64,000 bases of DNA, from NCBI GenBank assembly GCA_034088785.1, contig JAXDVS010000128.1:49709-113708 (forward strand), in the 5' to 3' direction. The position numbers and the translations under genes were made by a program. Source of the DNA: Treponema sp. GTDB lineage: Bacteria > Spirochaetota > Spirochaetia > Treponematales > Treponemataceae. Below the pieces are notes generated by a model. The model did no database searches. It was not told where the DNA came from and saw only the letters and a program-made list of their open reading frames with translations. Below, in pieces: positions 52,693 to 63,999 of the stretch (its first letter is position 1; each line of letters opens with the position of its first letter).

Positions 52693-54048
52693 CTAAATCC
52701 TCGGCACGCCGCCGAAGTTTCCTTCAAGATAATTCTCGTCCATCACCTTGTCTATGCGCACCTGCTTCTCGTCAAAGCTTGAGAGCTTGCTTGAGCCGTC
52801 GGATTTTGTCTCGCAGACCCACACCTCGTCGCGACGCAGAAATTTGTGGCTCATCAGCCTTGTCTCGTGAGTTGTGACAATAAGCTGCACATTGCGGTCT
52901 TTCACAATCTCAAAGAAAGTCTCAATGAATTTTATTGTCAGAAGAGGATGCATGCAGCGGCTTATCTCGTCAATCACAAAAACCTTGTCCTTTGCTGTCA
53001 TAAGCACATCCAAAAGCTGAAAAAGCCTGTAAGTTCCGTCGCTTTCGCGCCTCATCTCATAGTCAACTTTCTCGTCTCCATACTGATGGACAAATTTCAG
53101 GACATAATATTTCGCGTTTCCGCTCTCGTCCAGCTTTATTGTGAATATATTCGCGCGGTTTCTGATTACGGCAGACCAGTTGCTTTTCTGCCCGCTTATA
53201 ATGCTGTTTGTGCGCGCCATATTCATCTGAAAATCAAGTTTTGTCTTGTCGATAAACGAAAGATTCGCCTTTACCTTGTCCTCGCTCACTTCCTCTTTCT
53301 TGATTTCCACAATTCCAGTCCCGAATTTCTTCAGAAGCTCAGCGTAATCCTGTAGCGAGCATGAATCGTCAAGAAGAGCCGTATCGTTTATCGGCTGGTC
53401 AGGATAGATAACCTCGAAATTTTTTGCGAACCACTCAAAAATCCGCCTTAAAATAACCGCACTGGAGTTTTTCTCGTAGAAAGATTTTGTGTTGTGGTTC
53501 ATGCAGTAAAGAAAAGGGCTTTCGCCGCCAGAAAAAACATTCGCCAGAACTTTTATTTCCCGGCAGTTTTCAAGGACAGAGCCGAACTCAATTCCGGATT
53601 CAAGCGACTCCTTGTTAAATAGATATTTTTTCTCCTCTCCCTTTGTAAAATAAAGCCACTCTGAAACCACAAGTTTTTTCTGCATATCGACTTTAAGACC
53701 GTAAGTATAAGGCGCATCGTCAATCAGAAAGCATATTTCAAAAAACGAAGGCTTTTCCTTGTTCTCGCTTTTTATGCGGCAGTAAAGCTCGGCGGAATTC
53801 TGCACGATATGCCCCGAAAGAACATAGCTGCGCAAAACATTCATCGCCTTGAAAAAATTGGACTTGCCCGCGCTGTTCGCTCCGTAAACCGCGGCGAATT
53901 TAAGAACGCCAGTCTTCAAGACCGCCGCATTGTTTTTCGGATAGTAAAGATGCTCTTTTTTTGTGCGGAGCTTTTTTCCGCCTGCCAAAGAAAGAGTCTG
54001 GATTGAGTCATAAGACAAGAAATTTCCGCATGAAAATGAAACGAGCAT
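52693..54048 (-). CDS. AAA_21/AbiEii/RloA-like ABC-fold ATPase
   Basis: MLVSFSCGNFLS, Walker A GANSAGKSN, signature ESDGTYRL, Walker B IDEI, TTHE and C-terminal NYLEGNFGGVP. Confidence 0.88.
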   Translation of the reverse strand: MLVSFSCGNFLSYDSIQTLSLAGGKKLRTKKEHLYYPKNNAAVLKTGVLKFAAVYGANSAGKSNFFKAMNVLRSYVLSGHIVQNSAELYCRIKSENKEKPSFFEICFLIDDAPYTYGLKVDMQKKLVVSEWLYFTKGEEKKYLFNKESLESGIEFGSVLENCREIKVLANVFSGGESPFLYCMNHNTKSFYEKNSSAVILRRIFEWFAKNFEVIYPDQPINDTALLDDSCSLQDYAELLKKFGTGIVEIKKEEVSEDKVKANLSFIDKTKLDFQMNMARTNSIISGQKSNWSAVIRNRANIFTIKLDESGNAKYYVLKFVHQYGDEKVDYEMRRESDGTYRLFQLLDVLMTAKDKVFVIDEISRCMHPLLTIKFIETFFEIVKDRNVQLIVTTHETRLMSHKFLRRDEVWVCETKSDGSSKLSSFDEKQVRIDKVMDENYLEGNFGGVPRI

Positions 54049-54481
54049 ATTCGCCCCCGATTGCAGTTTGCTCTCCGTTTTTTTCGTGTTACACGAATAA
54101 TATTTATATTTTCGGAACAATTCAAGATTTTCTTCAATAATTTTATCATTTTATTCGATTTTTACGAATTTAAATTTGACAAATCGGCAGACGGTGCTTA
54201 TATTTTAACTAAGGTTAATTCGATTTTATCGAATTACTTAAAAAACATTGCAGGAGGCAAACAAATTGATTTTCTAAAAAAGGCTTGACAGCCTTAAAAA
54301 AAACGGGCAACAGACAAAAGGAAACGTTTCGGAGTTTCCAGAAAACATTTCTTTTTTTGAACAAGACGGACAAGGCCGGAATCAAAATTCGAACCTTTTA
54401 TCAAAAGATTCAGGACTAAATTATGAAAGGAATTGTAAAAAGCCTGAACCGACGAATTTATTCACATACAAGAGGTATAAG

Positions 54482-55420: not shown

Positions 55421-55640
55421 ACTGACAATGCTAGCAAGTGTCGCAATACAACCTACGCGACGGATACTGCTAATGCTAGCAGGTGTCGCAATACAGCTTA
55501 CGCGACGGCTACTGACAATATTAGCAGGTGTCAAAAACTCGGTTACGCAGCGCCCCTTTACAATGTTGTCAGAAGTCAAAACACAGACTATGTGACGGCA
55601 CCTGACAATGCTGATAGCTGCCAGAATTTAAGACCATAAA
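55421..55640. repeat. About 5 degenerate 45-bp tandem repeats
   Basis: Units start at 55421, 55466, 55511, 55556 and 55601 (ACTGACAATGCTAGCAAGTGTCGCAATACAACCTACGCGACGGAT), diverging progressively. Confidence 0.85.
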
Positions 55641-55687
55641 AAATCGGCAGATAAACAGGAATTTAGAGAAGCTGGAAAATGAATTCC

Positions 55688-56118
55688 TTATGCCTCAAAC
55701 CAGTTCTCAATTTTTAACGGAAAATATTTTTGAATCGCAACGAAGTCTTTTATGTTGCGTGTAACTAAAACTAAATCATTCGCCATGGCTGTCGCGGCAA
55801 TTTGAGCGTCTTGATAAAGCAACGGCGTTCCGTTTTTTGTTAAAACAGCAAACATATCGCTTTGTAAATCGGCGCATTTTTTGTCATAGGCAATAATTTC
55901 AAAGAATGGAAGAACCTGCTCCTCAACGTAAGCTGAAAGATAGTCTTTCTCCCAGCAGACATTCTTTTTATGCCTGTCTGTAGTTCATACCAAGTTATTG
56001 AGGAAATCGCACAGAAATCAGAATATAAATCCAGTTTTTCCTTTACAAGCTCGCTTGGCATAGTTTTTGAGCCGTCAGAAACAATATTGGTATCAAGCAG
56101 GTAAATTTTCTTTACCAT
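55688..56118 (-). pseudogene. vapC: VapC (PIN) toxin, frameshifted near 55945
   Basis: N-terminus YLLDTNIVS...ISSITWYEL. After a frame change it reads KDYLSAYVEEQVLPFFEIIAYDKKCA...QDAQIAATAMANDLVLVTRNIKDF..IQKYFPLKIENWFEA*. Confidence 0.85.
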
Positions 56119-56384
56119 ATATTCTCCACAGTTCCTCGCAAAGGTTCGCTTTTATCGCGAAGATTCTCAAACACGCCGTTAATTTCTTTAGCATTATTCG
56201 GAGTATCAAGCAAATCGGAATATTTTGACCTGAAAGATTTTAGACGCTCAGAATATTTTTTTGCGCTATTCTTAGAAGAATACCCGGATGATTTTTTCAG
56301 AGACTCAACAATCAGTGACAACAAGTCAAATTTTTCTGTCTCTGTCATTGTTGCAACATTTTCAATAACTGCTTCAAAACTCAT
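56112..56384 (-). CDS. Putative antitoxin of the VapC module
   Basis: 90-aa ORF directly upstream of vapC and overlapping it; C-terminal ..NLRD...R....W tail typical of such antitoxins. Confidence 0.7.
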   Translation of the reverse strand: MSFEAVIENVATMTETEKFDLLSLIVESLKKSSGYSSKNSAKKYSERLKSFRSKYSDLLDTPNNAKEINGVFENLRDKSEPLRGTVENIW

Positions 56385-56468: not shown

Positions 56469-57881
56469 TTATGAATTAAAAAGCATTGTATGCATTATCT
56501 TGTCATATTCTGAAAGAAAAACTTTATCATCTGCAATGAAATCAAAATACGTTTTCTGTCCATAATCATTATATATATTTATTTCATCTGCTAATAATTT
56601 CATAAGATATGACTTTTCATCACGGATAAAAAAACTATCTAATTTTATGTAGGGATTAGTATAATAAGTTTTATTCAGACAGAAAAAATCCCTAAGATTT
56701 TCAGAAAACTGTCTGTATTTTCCAGTATAAATATTAGACGAAAAATCAACATCCTTAAAAAACAATGTAAATGTGCCGTTTGAATTGTTTTTTACTGTGC
56801 AAAGATTCTTGGAATGGAAAACATAAGACGCTATGCAGCTTACAATTTCATAAATCAAAACCGCATAGCTGCAAAGCTCTAATTTTACTCCAGCCGCCAG
56901 TGTTATTTTGTGGCAAAGCTCAACTTGGCTGAATATTTTTTCCTGAAGCCGTCGGTCAATTCCGTTGAACATTTCCGCTAAAAACTCTTCAAGAAAGCTC
57001 TCATCAAAATTGATTGGAGCAACAGGAACATCTTTTCTCGTCCACTCGCAAAATTCTTTTTCAAGTCCGTTCATCACTTCTAAAGACTTGTTCGGTTTGC
57101 CATTTGACAAGGGAATTGAAATATCAATAATTTTTTGAAGATATGAATCAGCAAACTGCATTGCATTATGCTGCGGAGTTGGATTTAAAAAATTCTTTCC
57201 AAAGACCTTGCATATGCTGTCTGCCAAATTTGATTTATCAATAGCGACAATCTGGAAAACCGGCATTTTATTGCAGACGTGATGAAGCCTTTCCAAAACT
57301 TTTATCGCATATTCAGGCAAGCAGCGGTCCAGTTCATCAACAACGAGGAGGATTTTTAATTTTTCTGAAAGACTTTTTAGAACATCGCGGATTTCTGCAA
57401 GAGTTTTTCTAAGCGGAAGCATTGAATCAATGTCATTCGCAATTTTTGTTCCATGTTTTATTCTATAAAATAGATTCTTTTTGTTTTTTATAGATTTATC
57501 AATATCGATTTTTATAAAATACTTTGCGATTCCAGCAGCAAGAATTTCCAAATCAGAAGCAGCTTCTTTCAACAATTCTGCAACAACAGATTCGTAAAGC
57601 GATTTTTGTTTTGTAACCTCATTCAGTTTCTCAATCATCACTGAAAGCAGGGCGACAAGCGGCTCTTCATAAAAATCATTTTCCCAAGCGTTATAATGAA
57701 AAACCAGATATTCACCATTAGGCAACTGGGATTCAAGAGCATCCAAAATCCAAGTTTTTCCGCTCCCCCAGTCTCCGTCAATGGCAATTGAACAGCCGTT
57801 CTTATTCTTGGATTGATTTGCGATTATGTTTTTTAGAAGATTGATGAATGGCTGGCGGGAAAGATGGTCGATTTTAATCAA
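56469..57881 (-). CDS. KAP-family P-loop NTPase
   Basis: Walker A IAIDGDWGSGKT, YNAWEND, Walker B VVDELDRCLP and YLQKII. TTG start overlapping the upstream stop. Confidence 0.9.
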   Translation of the reverse strand: MIKIDHLSRQPFINLLKNIIANQSKNKNGCSIAIDGDWGSGKTWILDALESQLPNGEYLVFHYNAWENDFYEEPLVALLSVMIEKLNEVTKQKSLYESVVAELLKEAASDLEILAAGIAKYFIKIDIDKSIKNKKNLFYRIKHGTKIANDIDSMLPLRKTLAEIRDVLKSLSEKLKILLVVDELDRCLPEYAIKVLERLHHVCNKMPVFQIVAIDKSNLADSICKVFGKNFLNPTPQHNAMQFADSYLQKIIDISIPLSNGKPNKSLEVMNGLEKEFCEWTRKDVPVAPINFDESFLEEFLAEMFNGIDRRLQEKIFSQVELCHKITLAAGVKLELCSYAVLIYEIVSCIASYVFHSKNLCTVKNNSNGTFTLFFKDVDFSSNIYTGKYRQFSENLRDFFCLNKTYYTNPYIKLDSFFIRDEKSYLMKLLADEINIYNDYGQKTYFDFIADDKVFLSEYDKIMHTMLFNS

Positions 57882-58950
57882 ATTTTTCCTCTAAATATTT
57901 TTTTACTTCATTTGCCGTTGAATAATAAATATTCTCATCTCCATAATCATCAATATTCTTTATAGAAATTGATGTGGAATTAAATAAATTTTCACGAGAA
58001 AAAACACAAATCGGAAAATTCCCACAGAGTTGTAAATAATCTTGATTTTCTAAAACTTGTTCTTTTACTTTTTTTTCAATTCTTTTTATATATGTAAATG
58101 CTTCCATTGCATCAAAATCAATTGAAAGAACATCTTTTTGGGAATATTTTCCCGTTTCAGAACCTGCTACATAAATTTTTAGAAAAGTAAAAAATGTATG
58201 GTTTTTGTTATTTTCATCTTCATAACGTTTTTTTTCCATATTGACTGTGTTCATTAATCGAAAAAACTCAGTTGAATAAATAGTCTTTATTAACTCAAAC
58301 AAAAATTTATAAACACTTTCTATTGAATCTAATATTACAAAAGAGGCATCTCCTTCAGATTTTATATATATACCTTTACTTTGCAATAAATATGCAATTG
58401 ATAGCTCTTTAAAAAACTGTACAACCCCCCTGCATATTTTGTCATGGTATATGGGATTTATTTTTTTTAATTGAGTAGAAGATTTTATATCAGCGAAAAT
58501 TATAAAACTTGATTCTTTTTTTTCATATTTTTTATCAAGTTTTTTTAATAATAAATCAAAACTAACTTTATATAATTTTAAGGATTTGTTTTTATTTTGT
58601 TCTATCTCAGCAGAAGACATAAAAAGATTTTCAATAATCTTATATTCTGAAATATATTCAGATTGCTTGTCCACTTGACACTGGCAATATGGACATTTTT
58701 CATTATAAAAATTTATCAATTTATGGCATTGACTACATTCAATTTCATATGGGCTTATAACGTCATTTTCAACTAACCAAGCAAGAATATCTTTTGCATA
58801 TCCTTTCTGTGTTAATACCGATTTAAACTGAGAAACAGTAAAAATATTATTTGTACCAATGCTTCCAAAAAAATTATCTATAGCGGTTAAATTTTTATCA
58901 GTAAGTGCAGGATATTTTCTAGCAAGATTAAATAATTTGTTTAAATACAT
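57874..58950 (-). CDS. wHTH-like/Zn-ribbon protein fused to a class III nucleotidyl cyclase-like domain
   Basis: CSQC-x10-CPYC ribbon. FIIFADIKSST and YIKSEGDASF carry the two metal-binding Asp 47 aa apart (44 aa in the CHASE2 cyclase of this window), and KRIE aligns with SRLE. Confidence 0.7.
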   Translation of the reverse strand: MYLNKLFNLARKYPALTDKNLTAIDNFFGSIGTNNIFTVSQFKSVLTQKGYAKDILAWLVENDVISPYEIECSQCHKLINFYNEKCPYCQCQVDKQSEYISEYKIIENLFMSSAEIEQNKNKSLKLYKVSFDLLLKKLDKKYEKKESSFIIFADIKSSTQLKKINPIYHDKICRGVVQFFKELSIAYLLQSKGIYIKSEGDASFVILDSIESVYKFLFELIKTIYSTEFFRLMNTVNMEKKRYEDENNKNHTFFTFLKIYVAGSETGKYSQKDVLSIDFDAMEAFTYIKRIEKKVKEQVLENQDYLQLCGNFPICVFSRENLFNSTSISIKNIDDYGDENIYYSTANEVKKYLEEKFD

Positions 58951-59938
58951 CTTGCAACTCCTCCTTTGTTATAGATTCAGAAAATGTAATAATACTACTT
59001 TCAACCACATCAAATCTCATTCTAAAATAAAACACTTTTCCAGTAACATCAGTAAAATAATAAAACTCAAAATTATCATTAGTCAGAGAAAAATCATCAT
59101 CTATCGCTTTCGATAAACCTGCTGTATATAAAATATTTGTATGTAAATCAAAATCGGGATTATTTTCCTTTATTTGTTTTAATGAATATTTTTGTTGAAC
59201 TAAATCTCTTTTTATATCTTCAAAATTAGCCTTTGATTTTTTAAAATTGGCAAAATCAAAACTATTAGCCTTGTTAGAGATAGAATATGCAAGACAATTA
59301 GGCAAATATTTTAATGTATCAATATGCTCAGAAGTTAATAATGATTCAAATTTGACTTGCTTTCCTATTACTGTTTCAAGAAACTCAAATAATTCTTTGT
59401 CATCTTTTCTTTTATCAGAATAATCACCACAGGAATCATAGCCGCATATAATTCTTTTATTTTTAAAATCAAAATTTACAAAAGTAATATAATGAACTTT
59501 GCTTATTTGATATTTTTTAGTTAAAAAATCTTTTTTAATTTCATCTCCTAAAAAAGTATATGACTTACGAATTTGAATTTTTTTTACCAATATAAAATTA
59601 TCTTCAACTCTTTTATATAATTTCTGATTGTCTTGCTCAGGATCAAAACACCTTGTATCCTCAGAAGGAATATTACATATAGAATCTATTAAATTCTTAT
59701 ACTTAATTTGTTCAGAATCAAGCTTAAATAAATAGAAATGTTTTCTACCAGCTTCTTCCAACCTTTTGTAAAAATTCTGAAAATCTATTTCAGCATGAGG
59801 ATTTGCTTCAAAGTATTTAATAAATTTTTCTTTATAATCATCTTTATTTACACCTTTCAATGATTTCAATGAATTTATTTCTATAAATTTATCAAAAGCA
59901 TCTTTTGTCATCTTATTAAATATTATTGAGTAATTCAT
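58928..59938 (-). CDS. Hypothetical protein (336 aa), first gene of the AT-rich defence-like operon
   Basis: Long uninterrupted ORF in very AT-rich DNA, with RBS GGAG. It overlaps the cyclase gene by 23 nt and has no recognisable catalytic motif. Confidence 0.75.
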   Translation of the reverse strand: MNYSIIFNKMTKDAFDKFIEINSLKSLKGVNKDDYKEKFIKYFEANPHAEIDFQNFYKRLEEAGRKHFYLFKLDSEQIKYKNLIDSICNIPSEDTRCFDPEQDNQKLYKRVEDNFILVKKIQIRKSYTFLGDEIKKDFLTKKYQISKVHYITFVNFDFKNKRIICGYDSCGDYSDKRKDDKELFEFLETVIGKQVKFESLLTSEHIDTLKYLPNCLAYSISNKANSFDFANFKKSKANFEDIKRDLVQQKYSLKQIKENNPDFDLHTNILYTAGLSKAIDDDFSLTNDNFEFYYFTDVTGKVFYFRMRFDVVESSIITFSESITKEELQDVFKQII

Positions 59939-60035
59939 TTTTTATCTCCGTCCCTTAGCTTATGATTACATAATCTAATAGGAATAATTTTTCTCTATTA
60001 AATCCATCAATTCTATTCTATAACAATAAAGTACT

Positions 60036-61265
60036 TTATATAATCTCCAGTTGCCCATTCATAAGCAATGGAAGAAGTTTATCACGCAAAGTCGCCAATC
60101 TTAAATTTTCAACTTTTAGATTTGATTGCATTTTTGACAAAGGTTTTACATTTTGTGTGAAAGCCTGAACAATTTCTTCTGACGGAAGAACCACCCGGCT
60201 TTGATTTATATGCTCAGAAGTTATGTGCCCCATTGTTGTTTTTCTAGCTTCCGCTTGTTTTTGAAAATTAACTATGTATCTATCTAATTGCTGATAAACA
60301 TATTCGTTGGAAAAATAGCTTTTGGGCATAACTTTAAAAATATGCTGGTTCAATCCGCCTTTTCCTCCATTCCAAATCATAACTTCTAAAGTTGCAGACC
60401 AGGAAAATAAAATATCTCCGTTATTGATTTTATATTTTTCCGGAATATTGATTGAAACTTGCTCTGTGTCTTTTGTTATGCCTTCATGCATTTCACGAAT
60501 TTTTATGACAGGTAACGATTCTTCATCTTCTTTTGGTCTGAAATTCTGGCAGGCAAGCCCGTTTATATAATCCGCAATTTCATAAAGATTTCCAACTTTC
60601 CACCCTTCCGGGATTTCTCTTTTCAGCTCGGTGTTATATACCATTTTTCCGCCGCTGGACTTGTAGGGCTTGCCGTTTTCATTCGGAAAGTCAAACTGCA
60701 CGAACCAGTAGTCGTAAAGGCGTTTTGCCAGCTGCTCTAAAGTCCTGTTTATCTGCCGGTTGAGTGAAATTTTCTTGTCAATATTTGAAAGAACACTTGC
60801 AATCTTTTGTTGTTCAGAAAAAGGCGGAAAACTTAAATTCAGGTTCGCCAAATCGCTTGGATTTATCGACGGATAAGAAGAAACCTGATTTTGAGCGACA
60901 GTCTGCAAGTAGCTCACGATAAACGGCTGAGTTAGATTGTAGTACAGATAATCAGCGTTAAATTCATTCGGATTTTTTATATCCAGCGTCGCAAAGCCAG
61001 AAGAGACAATCAGGTTTGCGGCAGGATTTTTCATTATTCCAAAATGATTCTGATTCGGTCTTACCGTCGAGAAAATTATCGTGTTGTTTTTTACTTTTCG
61101 CTGCGCCCGGCTTGGTGCTTTTTCCAAGTCGAACCTTTGAAGCTTGCCGATTATGTTTTCCGTTATGTTCGCCGTGTCCAAGTATAAAATCTCATCGATT
61201 TTATCCGAGCTTTTTATGCTTGACGAATTTATTTCCACGATTTCACCCAGCTTATATTTCTTCAT
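60036..61265 (-). CDS. hsdS: Type I RM specificity subunit
   Basis: Two TRDs separated by PPFSEQQKIASVLSNIDKKI...FVQFDFPNENGKPYKSSGG...EIPEGW; ends LRDKLLPLLMNGQ. Confidence 0.95.
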   Translation of the reverse strand: MKKYKLGEIVEINSSSIKSSDKIDEILYLDTANITENIIGKLQRFDLEKAPSRAQRKVKNNTIIFSTVRPNQNHFGIMKNPAANLIVSSGFATLDIKNPNEFNADYLYYNLTQPFIVSYLQTVAQNQVSSYPSINPSDLANLNLSFPPFSEQQKIASVLSNIDKKISLNRQINRTLEQLAKRLYDYWFVQFDFPNENGKPYKSSGGKMVYNTELKREIPEGWKVGNLYEIADYINGLACQNFRPKEDEESLPVIKIREMHEGITKDTEQVSINIPEKYKINNGDILFSWSATLEVMIWNGGKGGLNQHIFKVMPKSYFSNEYVYQQLDRYIVNFQKQAEARKTTMGHITSEHINQSRVVLPSEEIVQAFTQNVKPLSKMQSNLKVENLRLATLRDKLLPLLMNGQLEII

Positions 61266-61293
61266 CTGCATTCTTGTTTCCTGTTTAATTCCG

Positions 61294-62334
61294 CTATTCA
61301 ATCAGTTTTTTTCCGTATTTTTCTTCAAGAAATCTTCTGTTGCGGTCAAGTTCCGCGCCTAGTTCTTCTTCTGTCGGAAGCACGGTTTTGTAGCGGCTTG
61401 CAAAAATCTGACGAGATTCGTTCAAAACGGAATATTTTACGATGCTTTCGTCCTTGTCCGCACAGAAAATAATTCCGATTGTCGGGTTGTCGTCATCGTT
61501 TTTTTTCAGCGAGTCAAACATTCTCACATACATATCCATCTGCCCGATATCCTGATGTTTCAGCCCGCCTTTTTTCAGGTCAATCAGAACAAAACATTTT
61601 AGGATATAATTGTAGAAAACAAGGTCAATGAAAAAATCCTGAGTTTCAGTCTTTACGTGCATCTGCCGTTCAACAAATGAAAACCCTTTCCCCATCTCAA
61701 GCAGAAATTTTTCAAGGTTTGAGATAATCGCATTTTCAATGTCCTTTTCTGAACTGCCAGTTTCAGGCTTTATTCCCAGAAACTCAAGAATATACGGATC
61801 TTTTTCAAGTGATTCATTTTTTAATCCGGCTGTTGATTTTTGCGGAATCTGGTTCTGCACAATCCGCTCAAACATCTGTGTTTTTATGTTTCTTTCAAGC
61901 TCGCGGACTGACCAGTTTCCATGTTTTGCTTCGTTTATGTAGTAATTACGTTTTTCCTCAGAATCAAGCCGCATAATCAGACGCAAGTGAGACCAAGTCA
62001 ATTCGCTACACAGTGTGTAGCAAATCTTTGCTGACGGAAATATCAAATAAAACTGACGGCAATTTTTTAAGTGAGCCTCGGACATTCCGCTTCCGATTTC
62101 CTTGTTCAGCTCTTTTGAAAGTTTCTCAATAATTTTTTCGCCGTAGCCCGCACGTTTTTCACCTTTCTGCTCCTGCTCAACAATCCTGAATCCAACAAGC
62201 CAGTACGCCTGTATCATTACAGAATTTACAGACTTGTAGCTTTGCTTCCGGGCAGATTTTAAAATATCCTTTACGTCTTTTATATAATCATCTGAAAACT
62301 GCGAGTTGCTTAGATTGATAATTTCACTTTCCAT
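61294..62334 (-). CDS. DUF1016/YhcG-family PD-(D/E)XK nuclease
   Basis: Motifs YWLVGFRI, LTWSH, WSVRELER, KDPYILEFLG, FIDLVFYN, IDLK, GQMDMYV and PTIGIIFC. Confidence 0.93.
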   Translation of the reverse strand: MESEIINLSNSQFSDDYIKDVKDILKSARKQSYKSVNSVMIQAYWLVGFRIVEQEQKGEKRAGYGEKIIEKLSKELNKEIGSGMSEAHLKNCRQFYLIFPSAKICYTLCSELTWSHLRLIMRLDSEEKRNYYINEAKHGNWSVRELERNIKTQMFERIVQNQIPQKSTAGLKNESLEKDPYILEFLGIKPETGSSEKDIENAIISNLEKFLLEMGKGFSFVERQMHVKTETQDFFIDLVFYNYILKCFVLIDLKKGGLKHQDIGQMDMYVRMFDSLKKNDDDNPTIGIIFCADKDESIVKYSVLNESRQIFASRYKTVLPTEEELGAELDRNRRFLEEKYGKKLIE

Positions 62335-62368: not shown

Positions 62369-63364
62369 TTATTTAGTTCCGCAATCATTAAACCTCAAGC
62401 TTTTCAGCTGATTCTGAATTTCTTCCTCCAGCTTACGGCTTTCTTTGAACATTGCGGAAAGTTCCTCTGTGTCGGCTTTTATCCGCGCGTTGAATTCTTC
62501 CACCGTAATATCAACGTATTCAATCTTGATGTCAAAATACTGACCCGCGCTAAGAACATAGCCTTTTTCAATGATTTCATCATAGGTAACGGCAACGCTG
62601 AAATCTTCCACGGCTTCTTTTTTAAGGAATGTTTCAACAATCTTGTCAATTTCAAAGTCCCGCAGGCGGCGTTTCTGGTTGCTGCCTTCCCTGTATTCCT
62701 CGCCGAGTTTTGAGGCGTCGATTAAAATAACTTTCGCGTTTTCATTTTTTTTGGACTTGTCAAAGAAAACAACGGAGACATTTGTTCCTGTTGTGGCAAA
62801 AACATTGCTCGGCATGCTCACTACGCCGCTTACAATCTTCTCATCCACGATTTTTTTAAGAATTTTGTTTTCAATTCCGCTTTTTGCAGTTATGAATCCC
62901 GTTGGAACTACGATTGCGCCTTTTCCGGAATCTTTCAGGGAATTTATAACGTGCTGAATAAAGCAGGTGTAAATCGCCATGCTTTCTTTTTTCTTTGCAG
63001 GCACATTCGGAACTTCTGCCCAGAATCTTTGCGTCTGCAAAGCGATTTTTTCTCTTGTGTCGCTAAAATCCATCTTGAACGGCGGATTGGAAACAACATA
63101 ATCAAATTTGCGCAGGCTGCTTCCGTCATCGCTCTTATGATAAGGATTTACAAGCGTGTCGCCCTGAATCGCCTTGTCCAAAGAAAGCACGAGGTTGTTC
63201 AAAAGAAGATTGAGCTTTAGCATTTTGTTTGAACGCTGGCTGATGTTCTGAGCATAAATGGTGCACTTGTCCTCGCCCACCTGATGAGCCAGAGCCATAA
63301 GCAAAGTTCCTGTTCCTGCGCTCGGGTCGTAACATTCAATGTTATGAAGGTCTTTTGCATTTCC
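62369..63364 (-). pseudogene. hsdM: 5'-truncated type I methyltransferase subunit
   Basis: It retains motif I (CYDPSAGTGTLL) and motif IV (SNPPF). Homology begins at about 63364, only 30 nt after the REase stop, and an in-frame stop lies at 63401-63403. There is no N-terminal domain and no usable start upstream of motif I. Confidence 0.85.
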
Positions 63365-63393
63365 TATTTTTAGTTTTTTCTTTTCTAAAGCAA

Positions 63394-63999
63394 TTATCCT
63401 TTATGCGGTCCTAAAAACTTGTCGCCGTTAAAATGAATCATGTGGCTTGGATTATCTGAAATCCAAGCCTCTGTTTCCCAAGCTATGTCTTGCGCAAATC
63501 GTGTGAAAGTCTTTTTGTCAGGAAAAGCGGAAATATAAACCTTGTCGGCGGTTACAGATGAAAAAAGTTCTTCAAGTTCAATATAGCGTTTTGAATCAAC
63601 AGGACCATGACTCGTCACCGATTCCACAAGAACAAGCCAATTTTTGCTTTCAACATACAAAATAACATCTGGCATTTTTCCGTGCTGCTGAACATTGAAC
63701 AAGAGTTTTCCCGCAAGTTCCTGATCATAGTAGCCCCATTTTTCACCGGTGTCACCGATATAAACAAGCGTACTTTCCGGCAAAAAACGCGGTGCCATCT
63801 GTTCTATAATGTCGCGGATAAGCTCGCTGTGTTTGCCAGGCGAAATTTGAACAGAATGATTTTCACGGATTTTTACGCTAACCATATTCATTTCACGTTC
63901 GTGCGCGTATTGTTCTGCAAGTGATTTTTGATTTTCGTGAAATTGTTTTAACAAGCTTTCAAAATCATCTGTTTTATACGACTTTATAACTTTTAGTGC
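63394..63999 (-). CDS. BsuBI/PstI-family type II restriction endonuclease, C-terminal part (runs off the window)
   Basis: Motifs HGKMPDVILY, LVESVTSHGPVD, IAWETEAW and HMIHFNGDKFLGP. The frame is open to the window end. Confidence 0.92.
   Translation of the reverse strand, partial: ALKVIKSYKTDDFESLLKQFHENQKSLAEQYAHEREMNMVSVKIRENHSVQISPGKHSELIRDIIEQMAPRFLPESTLVYIGDTGEKWGYYDQELAGKLLFNVQQHGKMPDVILYVESKNWLVLVESVTSHGPVDSKRYIELEELFSSVTADKVYISAFPDKKTFTRFAQDIAWETEAWISDNPSHMIHFNGDKFLGPHKG

Follow-up and report, generated by a model that had tools for sequence, protein, structure and literature searches.

What does an operon at the end of a type I restriction-modification (RM) locus in a gut Treponema encode, and do its three genes form one system or two? 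The locus lies in a 64,000-nucleotide stretch of Treponema sp. (GenBank assembly GCA_034088785.1, contig JAXDVS010000128.1, positions 49,709 to 113,708), referred to below as the window, whose minus strand carries three co-oriented open reading frames (ORFs): gene A, gene B, and a gene for a KAP NTPase. A sequence-only reading of this DNA had taken all three for a candidate undescribed anti-phage operon, with KAP as regulator or effector, and the ORFs lie at the positions given there. By following each gene through other genomes, we found that the pair A-B moves as one unit through defense islands, most often closing a type I RM operon. The pair is rare and undescribed, and it probably represents cyclase-based defense signaling with a new partner and no canonical effector. 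Comparison with its relatives identifies the KAP gene as a separate single-gene defense candidate that joined the operon in this Treponema lineage.

As described in the sequence-only reading, the three genes overlap. Gene A (59938..58928, minus strand, 336 amino acids [aa], ATG start, predicted RdgC-like fold) shares 23 nt (58928..58950, minus) with gene B (58950..57874, minus, 358 aa, ATG start), so placed that B has its ATG within the final codons of A. A ribosome-binding site, AGGAGGA (58965-58959), lies 8 nt ahead of that ATG and together with the overlap suggests that A and B are translationally coupled. Gene B in turn shares 8 nt (57874..57881, minus), a recombination junction, with the KAP NTPase gene (57881..56469, minus, 470 aa, TTG start), and a GAGGA ribosome-binding site at 57891-57887, within B, lies 5 nt ahead of the TTG. 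The strong AT richness reported for A and B relative to the host was borne out, with G+C contents of 23.6% (A) and 24.6% (B) against 44% for the whole window and 49% for the PFOR gene; KAP stands at 34.1%. Pairwise ratios of nonsynonymous to synonymous substitution rates (dN/dS) against homologues were 0.05-0.11 for A, 0.13-0.31 for B, and 0.19-0.43 for KAP, with a value of 0.32 for A against the near-identical sister strain L033. These ratios argue for three real genes rather than chance ORFs and indicate that A-B is under purifying selection. The protein cluster of the neighboring PFOR gene and the names that RefSeq gives to A and B assign the window to a Treponema species. The window sequence was found in DNA metagenome runs only, from pig gut, manure, and gut samples.

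The distribution of homologues separates the pair from its downstream neighbor. Hidden Markov models (HMMs) for A, B, KAP, and HsdS were used to score all loci; metagenomes supplied all but two of the contexts, and the independent lineages among them are modest in number. Wherever sequence continues past an A homologue, a B homologue lies directly downstream on the same strand, in about 13 lineages, and the two genes overlap by 23 nt in L001-L019 and L033-L037 and by 29 nt in L028. Even the most distant B relatives (17-27% identity) are likewise preceded by a match to the A profile: hhalign gave a probability of 99.7% for the upstream gene of P0038 and 98.5% for that of P0044, whose B is 17% identical and belongs to an integrase/DUF3854 integrative element. 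A is an obligate upstream partner of B; a role as sensor or partner had been suspected from the window by itself. Both families are small, with 16 (A) and 10 (B) clusters at 90% identity among 5.8 billion proteins and 21 representatives in an exhaustive profile search with B among 1.84 billion.

The places in which the pair is found are defense loci of several kinds. In nine lineages, the window included, A-B comes directly behind hsdS in a type I RM operon, co-oriented with it and 18-97 nt away; RhuM, AAA_15, ORF6N, Bro-N, or YhcG genes are found in such operons as well. The pair also occurs away from any type I RM. In L015-17 it is flanked by AAA_21/RloB genes on one side and a LlaJI-type RM system on the other (an AbiL/LlaJI island); in the complete genome of the cultured Oceanispirochaeta crateris (L013; CP036150, positions 455407-457420), it has no KAP gene and lies beside an integrase in an island of GmrSD, HEPN, Fic, and toxin-antitoxin genes; and in L028-30 it is cargo of an integrase/DUF3854 integrative element. 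Defense genes thus occur in nearly all informative neighborhoods, in line with the earlier view of the type I RM locus as a hotspot for them. Of the two possibilities raised for such a survey, co-occurrence of the trio or of the first pair, only the second was found: A and B are always together, nearly always in defense islands, whereas the trio is not conserved. A was absent from IMG/VR, GenBank phages, and PLSDB plasmids, and B was absent from plasmids. A prophage-borne, Rex-like exclusion cassette was considered and is ruled out by the lack of matches in the phage, IMG/VR, and plasmid collections.

PADLOC and Foldseek, both named as checks in the sequence-only reading, left A and B unmatched in the former and returned a cyclase fold for B in the latter. 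Neither protein has a match in Pfam, PADLOC, NCBIfam, or PHROGs, and the fold assignments given here depend on predicted models for which the underlying alignments were shallow (10 and 16 sequences). The AlphaFold2 (AF2) model of B, with a mean predicted local distance difference test score (pLDDT) of 84, has four parts, all encoded on the minus strand. Residues 1-68 (58747..58950) form a small helical N-terminal domain with a winged-helix-like H-H-E-H-H-E topology in the model. This is the best-conserved region of B, with a mean column identity of 0.83 in the close family, and it gave no significant sequence match (ADAR1 Z-alpha reached just E=1.2), so that the winged helix-turn-helix (wHTH) originally assigned to B holds as a predicted topology but has no counterpart at the sequence level. 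Residues 69-104 (58639..58746) are a CxxC...CxxC zinc ribbon (C72, C75, C86, and C89). Its four Cys residues are invariant in the B-family alignment, and 7-11 of the 18 family members match Pfam Zn_ribbon_3, DZR, or Zn_Ribbon_1; the ribbon varies more than any other part of the protein except an insert in the cyclase domain. Residues 105-146 (58513..58638) make up a long single helix (H113-143) that runs from the N-terminal module to the catalytic domain, the same linking role that the coiled-coil transducer has in regulated class III cyclases. No transmembrane segment was found in B (maximum 19-residue hydropathy of 1.24), which is predicted to be soluble.

The remainder of B, residues 147-358 (57877..58512), is a divergent class III nucleotidyl-cyclase homology domain. 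Class III adenylyl or guanylyl cyclases and GGDEF domains fill essentially all of the top 50 Foldseek matches of B in the Protein Data Bank (PDB). Matches to OaPAC, Mycobacterium avium Ma1120, and mammalian adenylyl cyclase have E values of 6e-5 to 1e-3 at a probability of 1.0, template modeling scores (TM-scores) on the target reach 0.63, and the top match, to OaPAC (4yus), spans 237 columns, exceeding the catalytic domain alone. A profile built from 18 B-family members matches the adenylyl cyclase Ma1120 at E=1e-3, and the Ma1120 metal-binding motifs FTDIEEST and KSQGDGF align with D154 and D201 of B; a PDB sequence search with the close-family profile returned nothing meaningful, and the wider profile was needed to reach Ma1120. 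Five HMMs for PycC, the Pycsar cyclase, were each matched weakly by 1-3 of the 18 relatives (best value, 8e-5), and PycC was the only PADLOC family that they matched recurrently. Pfam Guanylate_cyc and GGDEF were matched by none of the 18 members, with Guanylate_cyc tried at E<=10. From the structural matches and the family-profile and PycC sequence evidence, B is a very divergent class III-type cyclase homologue, in keeping with the combination of zinc ribbon and class III cyclase-like domain first recognized in the window.

Several residues expected of an active enzyme are kept. D154, G200-D201, K258, and E292 are invariant in the B family, and the model places two metal-binding Asp residues in a palm fold, one on beta1 (D154) and one in the GD hairpin (D201). 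On manual reading, an R-I-E-K motif (R290 and E292) resembles the AxRxE motif, but no conserved Asn was found. Judged from the invariant residues and the model, B is probably catalytically competent.

Gene A is equally silent in sequence searches, and its proposed identity comes from structure prediction. The AF2 model (pLDDT, 89; predicted TM-score [pTM], 0.85) shows N-terminal helices followed by long beta-hairpins, with no transmembrane segment found. Foldseek against the PDB returned a sole significant match, Escherichia coli RdgC (2owl; E value, 7e-5; probability, 1.0), aligned end to end over 340 columns with TM-scores of 0.32-0.35. A search of BFVD with the same model, independent of the PDB match, tops out in phage proteins annotated as RdgC or "exonuclease." A PDB sequence search with the close-family A profile gave nothing meaningful. 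An RdgC-like fold for A can be proposed with moderate rather than firm confidence, because the TM-scores are low and sequence profiles are blind to RdgC and RexA; the low scores perhaps reflect differences in domain hinges.

Taken with the genomic contexts, these assignments lead us to favor the view that A-B is an undescribed anti-phage signaling module, related to Pycsar in its logic, to which KAP does not belong, and we hold it with about even confidence. With its sensor domains, linker helix, and catalytic domain, B is built like a regulated class III cyclase. Under such a scheme, A and the wHTH/zinc-ribbon part of B would detect phage DNA or a replication or recombination intermediate, with the variable zinc-ribbon loops of B and A itself as candidate sensing surfaces. 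Detection would switch on the cyclase domain, and its nucleotide product, or the drain on nucleoside triphosphates (NTPs), would arrest the infected cell or block phage replication. The reverse wiring is equally possible, with B as the sensor and A as a nucleotide-controlled DNA clamp that acts as effector. Options for the output would thus be A as such a clamp, NTP depletion, or a host-encoded receptor of the signal. The downstream KAP would act independently, having lost its own start region and become co-translated with B in this lineage. Both the defense function of A-B and a nucleotide product of B are inferred.

A number of observations weigh against this reading. The B protein of the window itself has no PADLOC or Pfam cyclase match and no PycC match even at E<=1. 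Manual reading of the B alignment did not reveal the transition-state Asn that canonical class III cyclases have, so the product may not be a 3',5'-cyclic nucleoside monophosphate (cNMP). No effector domain (transmembrane, TIR, nuclease, or cNMP-binding) that could carry out a killing or blocking step is recognizable in A or B. The likeness of A to RdgC derives entirely from predicted structure, with TM-scores of only 0.3-0.4; Pfam RdgC is unmatched by 16 A-family members, and when the A profile was compared with E. coli RdgC and lambda RexA by hhalign, the probability was 0.2%. Finally, one locus (L019) has no obvious defense neighbors in the sequenced part.

A more specific version, which we regard as possible but doubtful, is that A-B is a self-sufficient cyclic-nucleotide module in which an RdgC/RexA-like DNA ring protein is wired directly to a PycC-like cyclase. 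In that case A could be either a nucleic-acid sensor that activates the cyclase or the first cyclic-nucleotide-controlled DNA-clamping effector, in a module that would operate with no membrane, TIR, or nuclease effector.

The comparison with Pycsar shows both how far the likeness goes and where it stops. Like Pycsar, A-B is a two-gene defense-island module with a class III-type cyclase, and both metal-binding Asp residues are kept in B. Unlike Pycsar, it has no cNMP-binding, transmembrane, or TIR effector, and its upstream partner is an RdgC-like soluble protein. The lack of such an effector had been pointed out before and stands, since neither A nor KAP has a Pfam or PADLOC match to one and no transmembrane segment was found in A or B. 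B differs further in its extra wHTH-like domain, zinc ribbon, and linker helix, and the B of the window falls below every PycC model. The genes that neighbor A-B vary between lineages, and Pfam and PADLOC revealed no adjacent Pycsar-type effector.

RexAB offers a second point of comparison, from the side of gene A. The crystal structure of RexA, the phage-exclusion sensor of lambda, is reported to show RdgC as its structural relative, and both are nonspecific DNA binders (PMC11077077). The predicted fold of A matches RdgC, the reported relative of RexA, and A, like RexA, is encoded by the first gene of two. A differs from both proteins in having no sequence similarity to either, and its partner is a soluble cyclase rather than the membrane protein RexB. 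A-B also differs from RexAB in not being prophage borne, with no matches in the phage collections searched.

Among alternative accounts, the one that survives best makes B a toxic enzyme, a nucleotidyltransferase or NTP-depleting enzyme or a palm-domain polymerase-like protein, with A as its inhibitor or DNA-tethering regulator in a toxin-antitoxin-like form of abortive infection. The module encodes no receptor or effector for a cyclic nucleotide, the canonical class III Asn is not evident in B, coupling with A upstream fits stoichiometric control, and toxin-antitoxin genes are frequent neighbors of A-B. We nevertheless consider this unlikely. The architecture of B and its best sequence and fold matches are those of bona fide signaling cyclases, PycC included, and A, which matches B in size and exceeds it in conservation, would make an unusual antitoxin.

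The frequent position behind hsdS raises another alternative, that A-B is no autonomous system but serves the type I RM enzyme as accessory or guard, silenced by the RM complex and triggered once a phage anti-restriction protein puts that complex out of action. PrrC in the EcoprrI locus is a precedent for a guard held silent by a type I RM system. The placement of A-B in the nine type I RM lineages described above, close behind hsdS, co-oriented with it, and with no promoter or terminator signal in between, fits such a role. In the window, the spacer between hsdS and A (59939-60035, 97 nt) holds no same-strand promoter-like or terminator-like sites; counts in the sigma-70 promoter and terminator scan equaled those of shuffled controls, and the scan is uninformative for a spirochete. 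A-B resembles restriction-linked ORFs such as PrrC, RloC, and the Rlo genes as defense genes inside or ending type I hsd operons; it differs from them in having no anticodon-nuclease or ABC-ATPase domains and in occurring also where there is no type I RM. A guard role is improbable because the pair occurs without hsd genes in several lineages (L013, L015-17, and L028-30), so that hsd linkage is not obligate, and because it is intact beside a truncated hsdM in the window, where A and B are 97% identical to those of the sister strain.

That RM locus can be described gene by gene on the minus strand. The specificity gene hsdS (61301..60036; Pfam Methylase_S, 3e-24; PADLOC Specificity_I, 1e-103) is preceded by a YhcG/DUF1016 PD-(D/E)xK nuclease gene (62334..61294) that matches the PADLOC candidate PDC-S02 at 2.5e-133. 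This gene sits between hsdM and hsdS, with an 8-nt overlap with hsdS, and L033 and L037 carry it at the same place. Upstream of it lies the hsdM fragment (63304..62369), which codes only for residues 214-550 of the sister-strain protein (63394..62384). Directly upstream of the truncated gene is an ORF with a BsuBI/PstI restriction-endonuclease domain (63954..63394; Pfam, 1.6e-60). In sister strain L033, hsdM is full length (550 aa), and a Fic gene is present that the window lacks. Judged from these ORFs, the RM system of the window strain may be defective although A-B-KAP is intact.

The KAP gene bears on a further alternative, that A, B, and KAP are one three-component system in which KAP regulates or executes the cyclase signal. 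Co-orientation, the two overlaps, and the ribosome-binding sites described above are what such a system would look like, sister strains (L023 and L033-35) have the same arrangement, and in two more lineages a KAP-family gene comes after A-B, with the gene for an 888-aa TPR protein in between. We judge it quite improbable, and the assignment of KAP to the same system as A-B in the sequence-only reading was not supported, because KAP is missing from about 10 of the 13 A-B lineages and has its own history elsewhere. KAP (Pfam KAP_NTPase, 4e-27) matches the PADLOC candidate PDC-S20 (PDLC04958) over its full length (E value, 2.1e-170; residues 3-467 against profile positions 2-457/458), and PDC-S20 is a predicted single-gene phage defense candidate. 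By this match, the gene is a member of an already catalogued candidate family, so that the earlier statement that the operon corresponds to no named system applies to A-B and not to KAP. The family is large (>2,000 clusters at E<=1e-10). Outside the locus, the closest relatives of the window KAP (86% and 70% identical) stand alone, each with a gap of about 240 nt upstream; in many Treponema contigs the stand-alone gene lies between a sulfatase-modifying-factor lipoprotein gene and rpmG-secE-nusG, a site with neither A-B nor RM.

The junction between B and KAP points the same way. Homology between KAP and the stand-alone Treponema gene (L021 6900-7100 versus window 57780-57960) begins at codon 3; in a secondary fusion, the native ATG and all that lay upstream of it have given way to the last codons of B. 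Those codons supply KAP with its GAGGA ribosome-binding site and TTG start, and L023 and L033-35 share the same junction. KAP is also unlike A-B in G+C content, and its identity to the allele of L033, the syntenic sister strain, is just 75%, compared with 97% for A and B. Elsewhere the slot behind B is taken by other genes: PDC-S31; PDC-M62A/B; an HNH nuclease followed by PDC-M12A/B; a LlaJI RM system; toxin-antitoxin genes; or housekeeping genes. A 453-aa gene after B in L005, tried as a divergent KAP, was rejected, being PDC-S31. Together, the absence of KAP from most lineages, the PDC-S20 match, the stand-alone relatives, the G+C content, the junction, and the varied slot make the true unit the two genes A and B. 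From these comparisons, A-B-KAP is a physical operon in this lineage and not a conserved system.

Two points on the other side concern KAP alone. KAP after A-B is confined to three related gut Treponema lineages (the window lineage, with L023 and L033-35; L009-12; and L001-04), and direct B/KAP overlap occurs in the window lineage, while the 888-aa TPR/P-loop protein intervenes in L009-12. The KAPs of the three lineages are only 50-54% identical to each other, and a lineage-specific functional link of KAP with A-B may exist.

As an autonomous gene, KAP has clear parallels. Single-gene KAP NTPases with uncharacterized C-terminal regions defend against phage (PMC13552941), and these validated proteins fit an autonomous role for the KAP of the window. 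Like them and PDC-S20, it has a KAP domain plus a C-terminal region (about 200 aa with no assigned function), intact Walker motifs (Walker A, GDWGSGKT at residue 36; Walker B, LLVVDE at residue 178), and single-gene relatives. It differs in having no start region of its own, in belonging to the A-B operon, and in following an 888-aa TPR/P-loop protein in related loci. Its resemblance to QatA of QatABCD is a weak partial match (PADLOC, 1e-17; NCBIfam, 70 bits against a cutoff of 600), and no QueC or TatD genes were found among the neighbors.

Some features of these KAP genes are recorded here in their own right. Compared with L033 9001-10407, the first 250 nt of the window KAP are about 95% identical, about 270 nt (57359-57630) cannot be aligned as DNA, and identity over the remainder is 90%; the window allele is nearer (86%) to the stand-alone paralogue at another locus than to the L033 allele. 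This mosaic pattern suggests allele replacement, gene conversion, or diversifying exchange. In L009 (9092-13185; also in L010-12), KAP overlaps the upstream 888-aa gene by 4 nt. The 888-aa protein has a P-loop-like stretch and TPR repeats and no clear PADLOC match, and its gene is degraded in L001-04, with ORFs of 169 aa and 554 aa in L001. Together, the 888-aa protein and KAP may form an unrecognized two-gene KAP system.

The weakest proposal, that A-B has no defense role and is regulatory or selfish cargo of mobile islands (cAMP-type signaling or DNA maintenance), can draw on the L019 context, which has no recognizable defense genes, and on AT-rich composition and patchy distribution, which suit any horizontally moving cargo, but it is very improbable given that almost every informative neighborhood consists of known or candidate defense genes, that A is absent from the phage, IMG/VR, and plasmid collections and B from plasmids, and that the one known relative recurring in searches with the B family is a defense cyclase.

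The remaining surroundings of the operon are consistent with its earlier placement between hsdS and vapBC. Downstream of KAP, at 56384..55688 on the minus strand, lie a VapB-like ORF (90 aa) and then a PIN toxin gene. Probably through a frameshift, the PIN gene is broken into overlapping ORFs of 92 aa and 55 aa, and the same split occurs in L023; L033 has a different, intact VapBC pair at this position. Inverted repeats (38 nt, 89%; 25 nt, 88%) between window positions 55618-55679 and 60528-60761 match the central conserved hsdS region, and the plus strand at about 55640-55680 reads "...NRQINRNLEKL...," resembling "NRQINRTLEQL" of HsdS. This scrambled, inverted hsdS relic brackets the A-B-KAP-vapBC block, and it may be a remnant of a phase-variable hsdS inverton. 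At 55421-55600, intergenic between an HU/DUF4469 gene and the PIN fragment, a 45-nt unit is present in four tandem copies that decay from 100% to 60% identity. An AAA_21 ATPase gene (52693-54120, minus) between the PFOR gene and the HU-like DUF4469 gene matches PADLOC AbiLi at 8.6e-70. No AbiLii/RloB partner was found among the window ORFs scanned, and the ATPase may be an orphan or a degraded AbiL-type system.

No description of the A-B pair was found in the libraries and literature searched, which covered PDC-S20, RdgC-like defense, antiphage systems with class III cyclases, and zinc-ribbon variants of Pycsar, and a paper on the modularity of defense components mentions neither RdgC nor KAP. 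To our knowledge, how class III-type defense cyclases such as PycC sense infection is not understood, and every cyclase-based system that we know to have been described couples its cyclase to a nucleotide-binding killer protein. A-B is unlike these systems: its cyclase bears its own DNA-binding-type sensor domains, and its invariant partner resembles the RdgC/RexA DNA ring proteins. The results also correct the unit of study, as cloning of all three genes would mix two systems, and they place KAP in a separate class of single-gene defenses that has been validated only recently. If A-B does defend its host, it would offer either a tractable model of how nucleic acid activates such cyclases or a new output, the control of a DNA clamp by a nucleotide signal.

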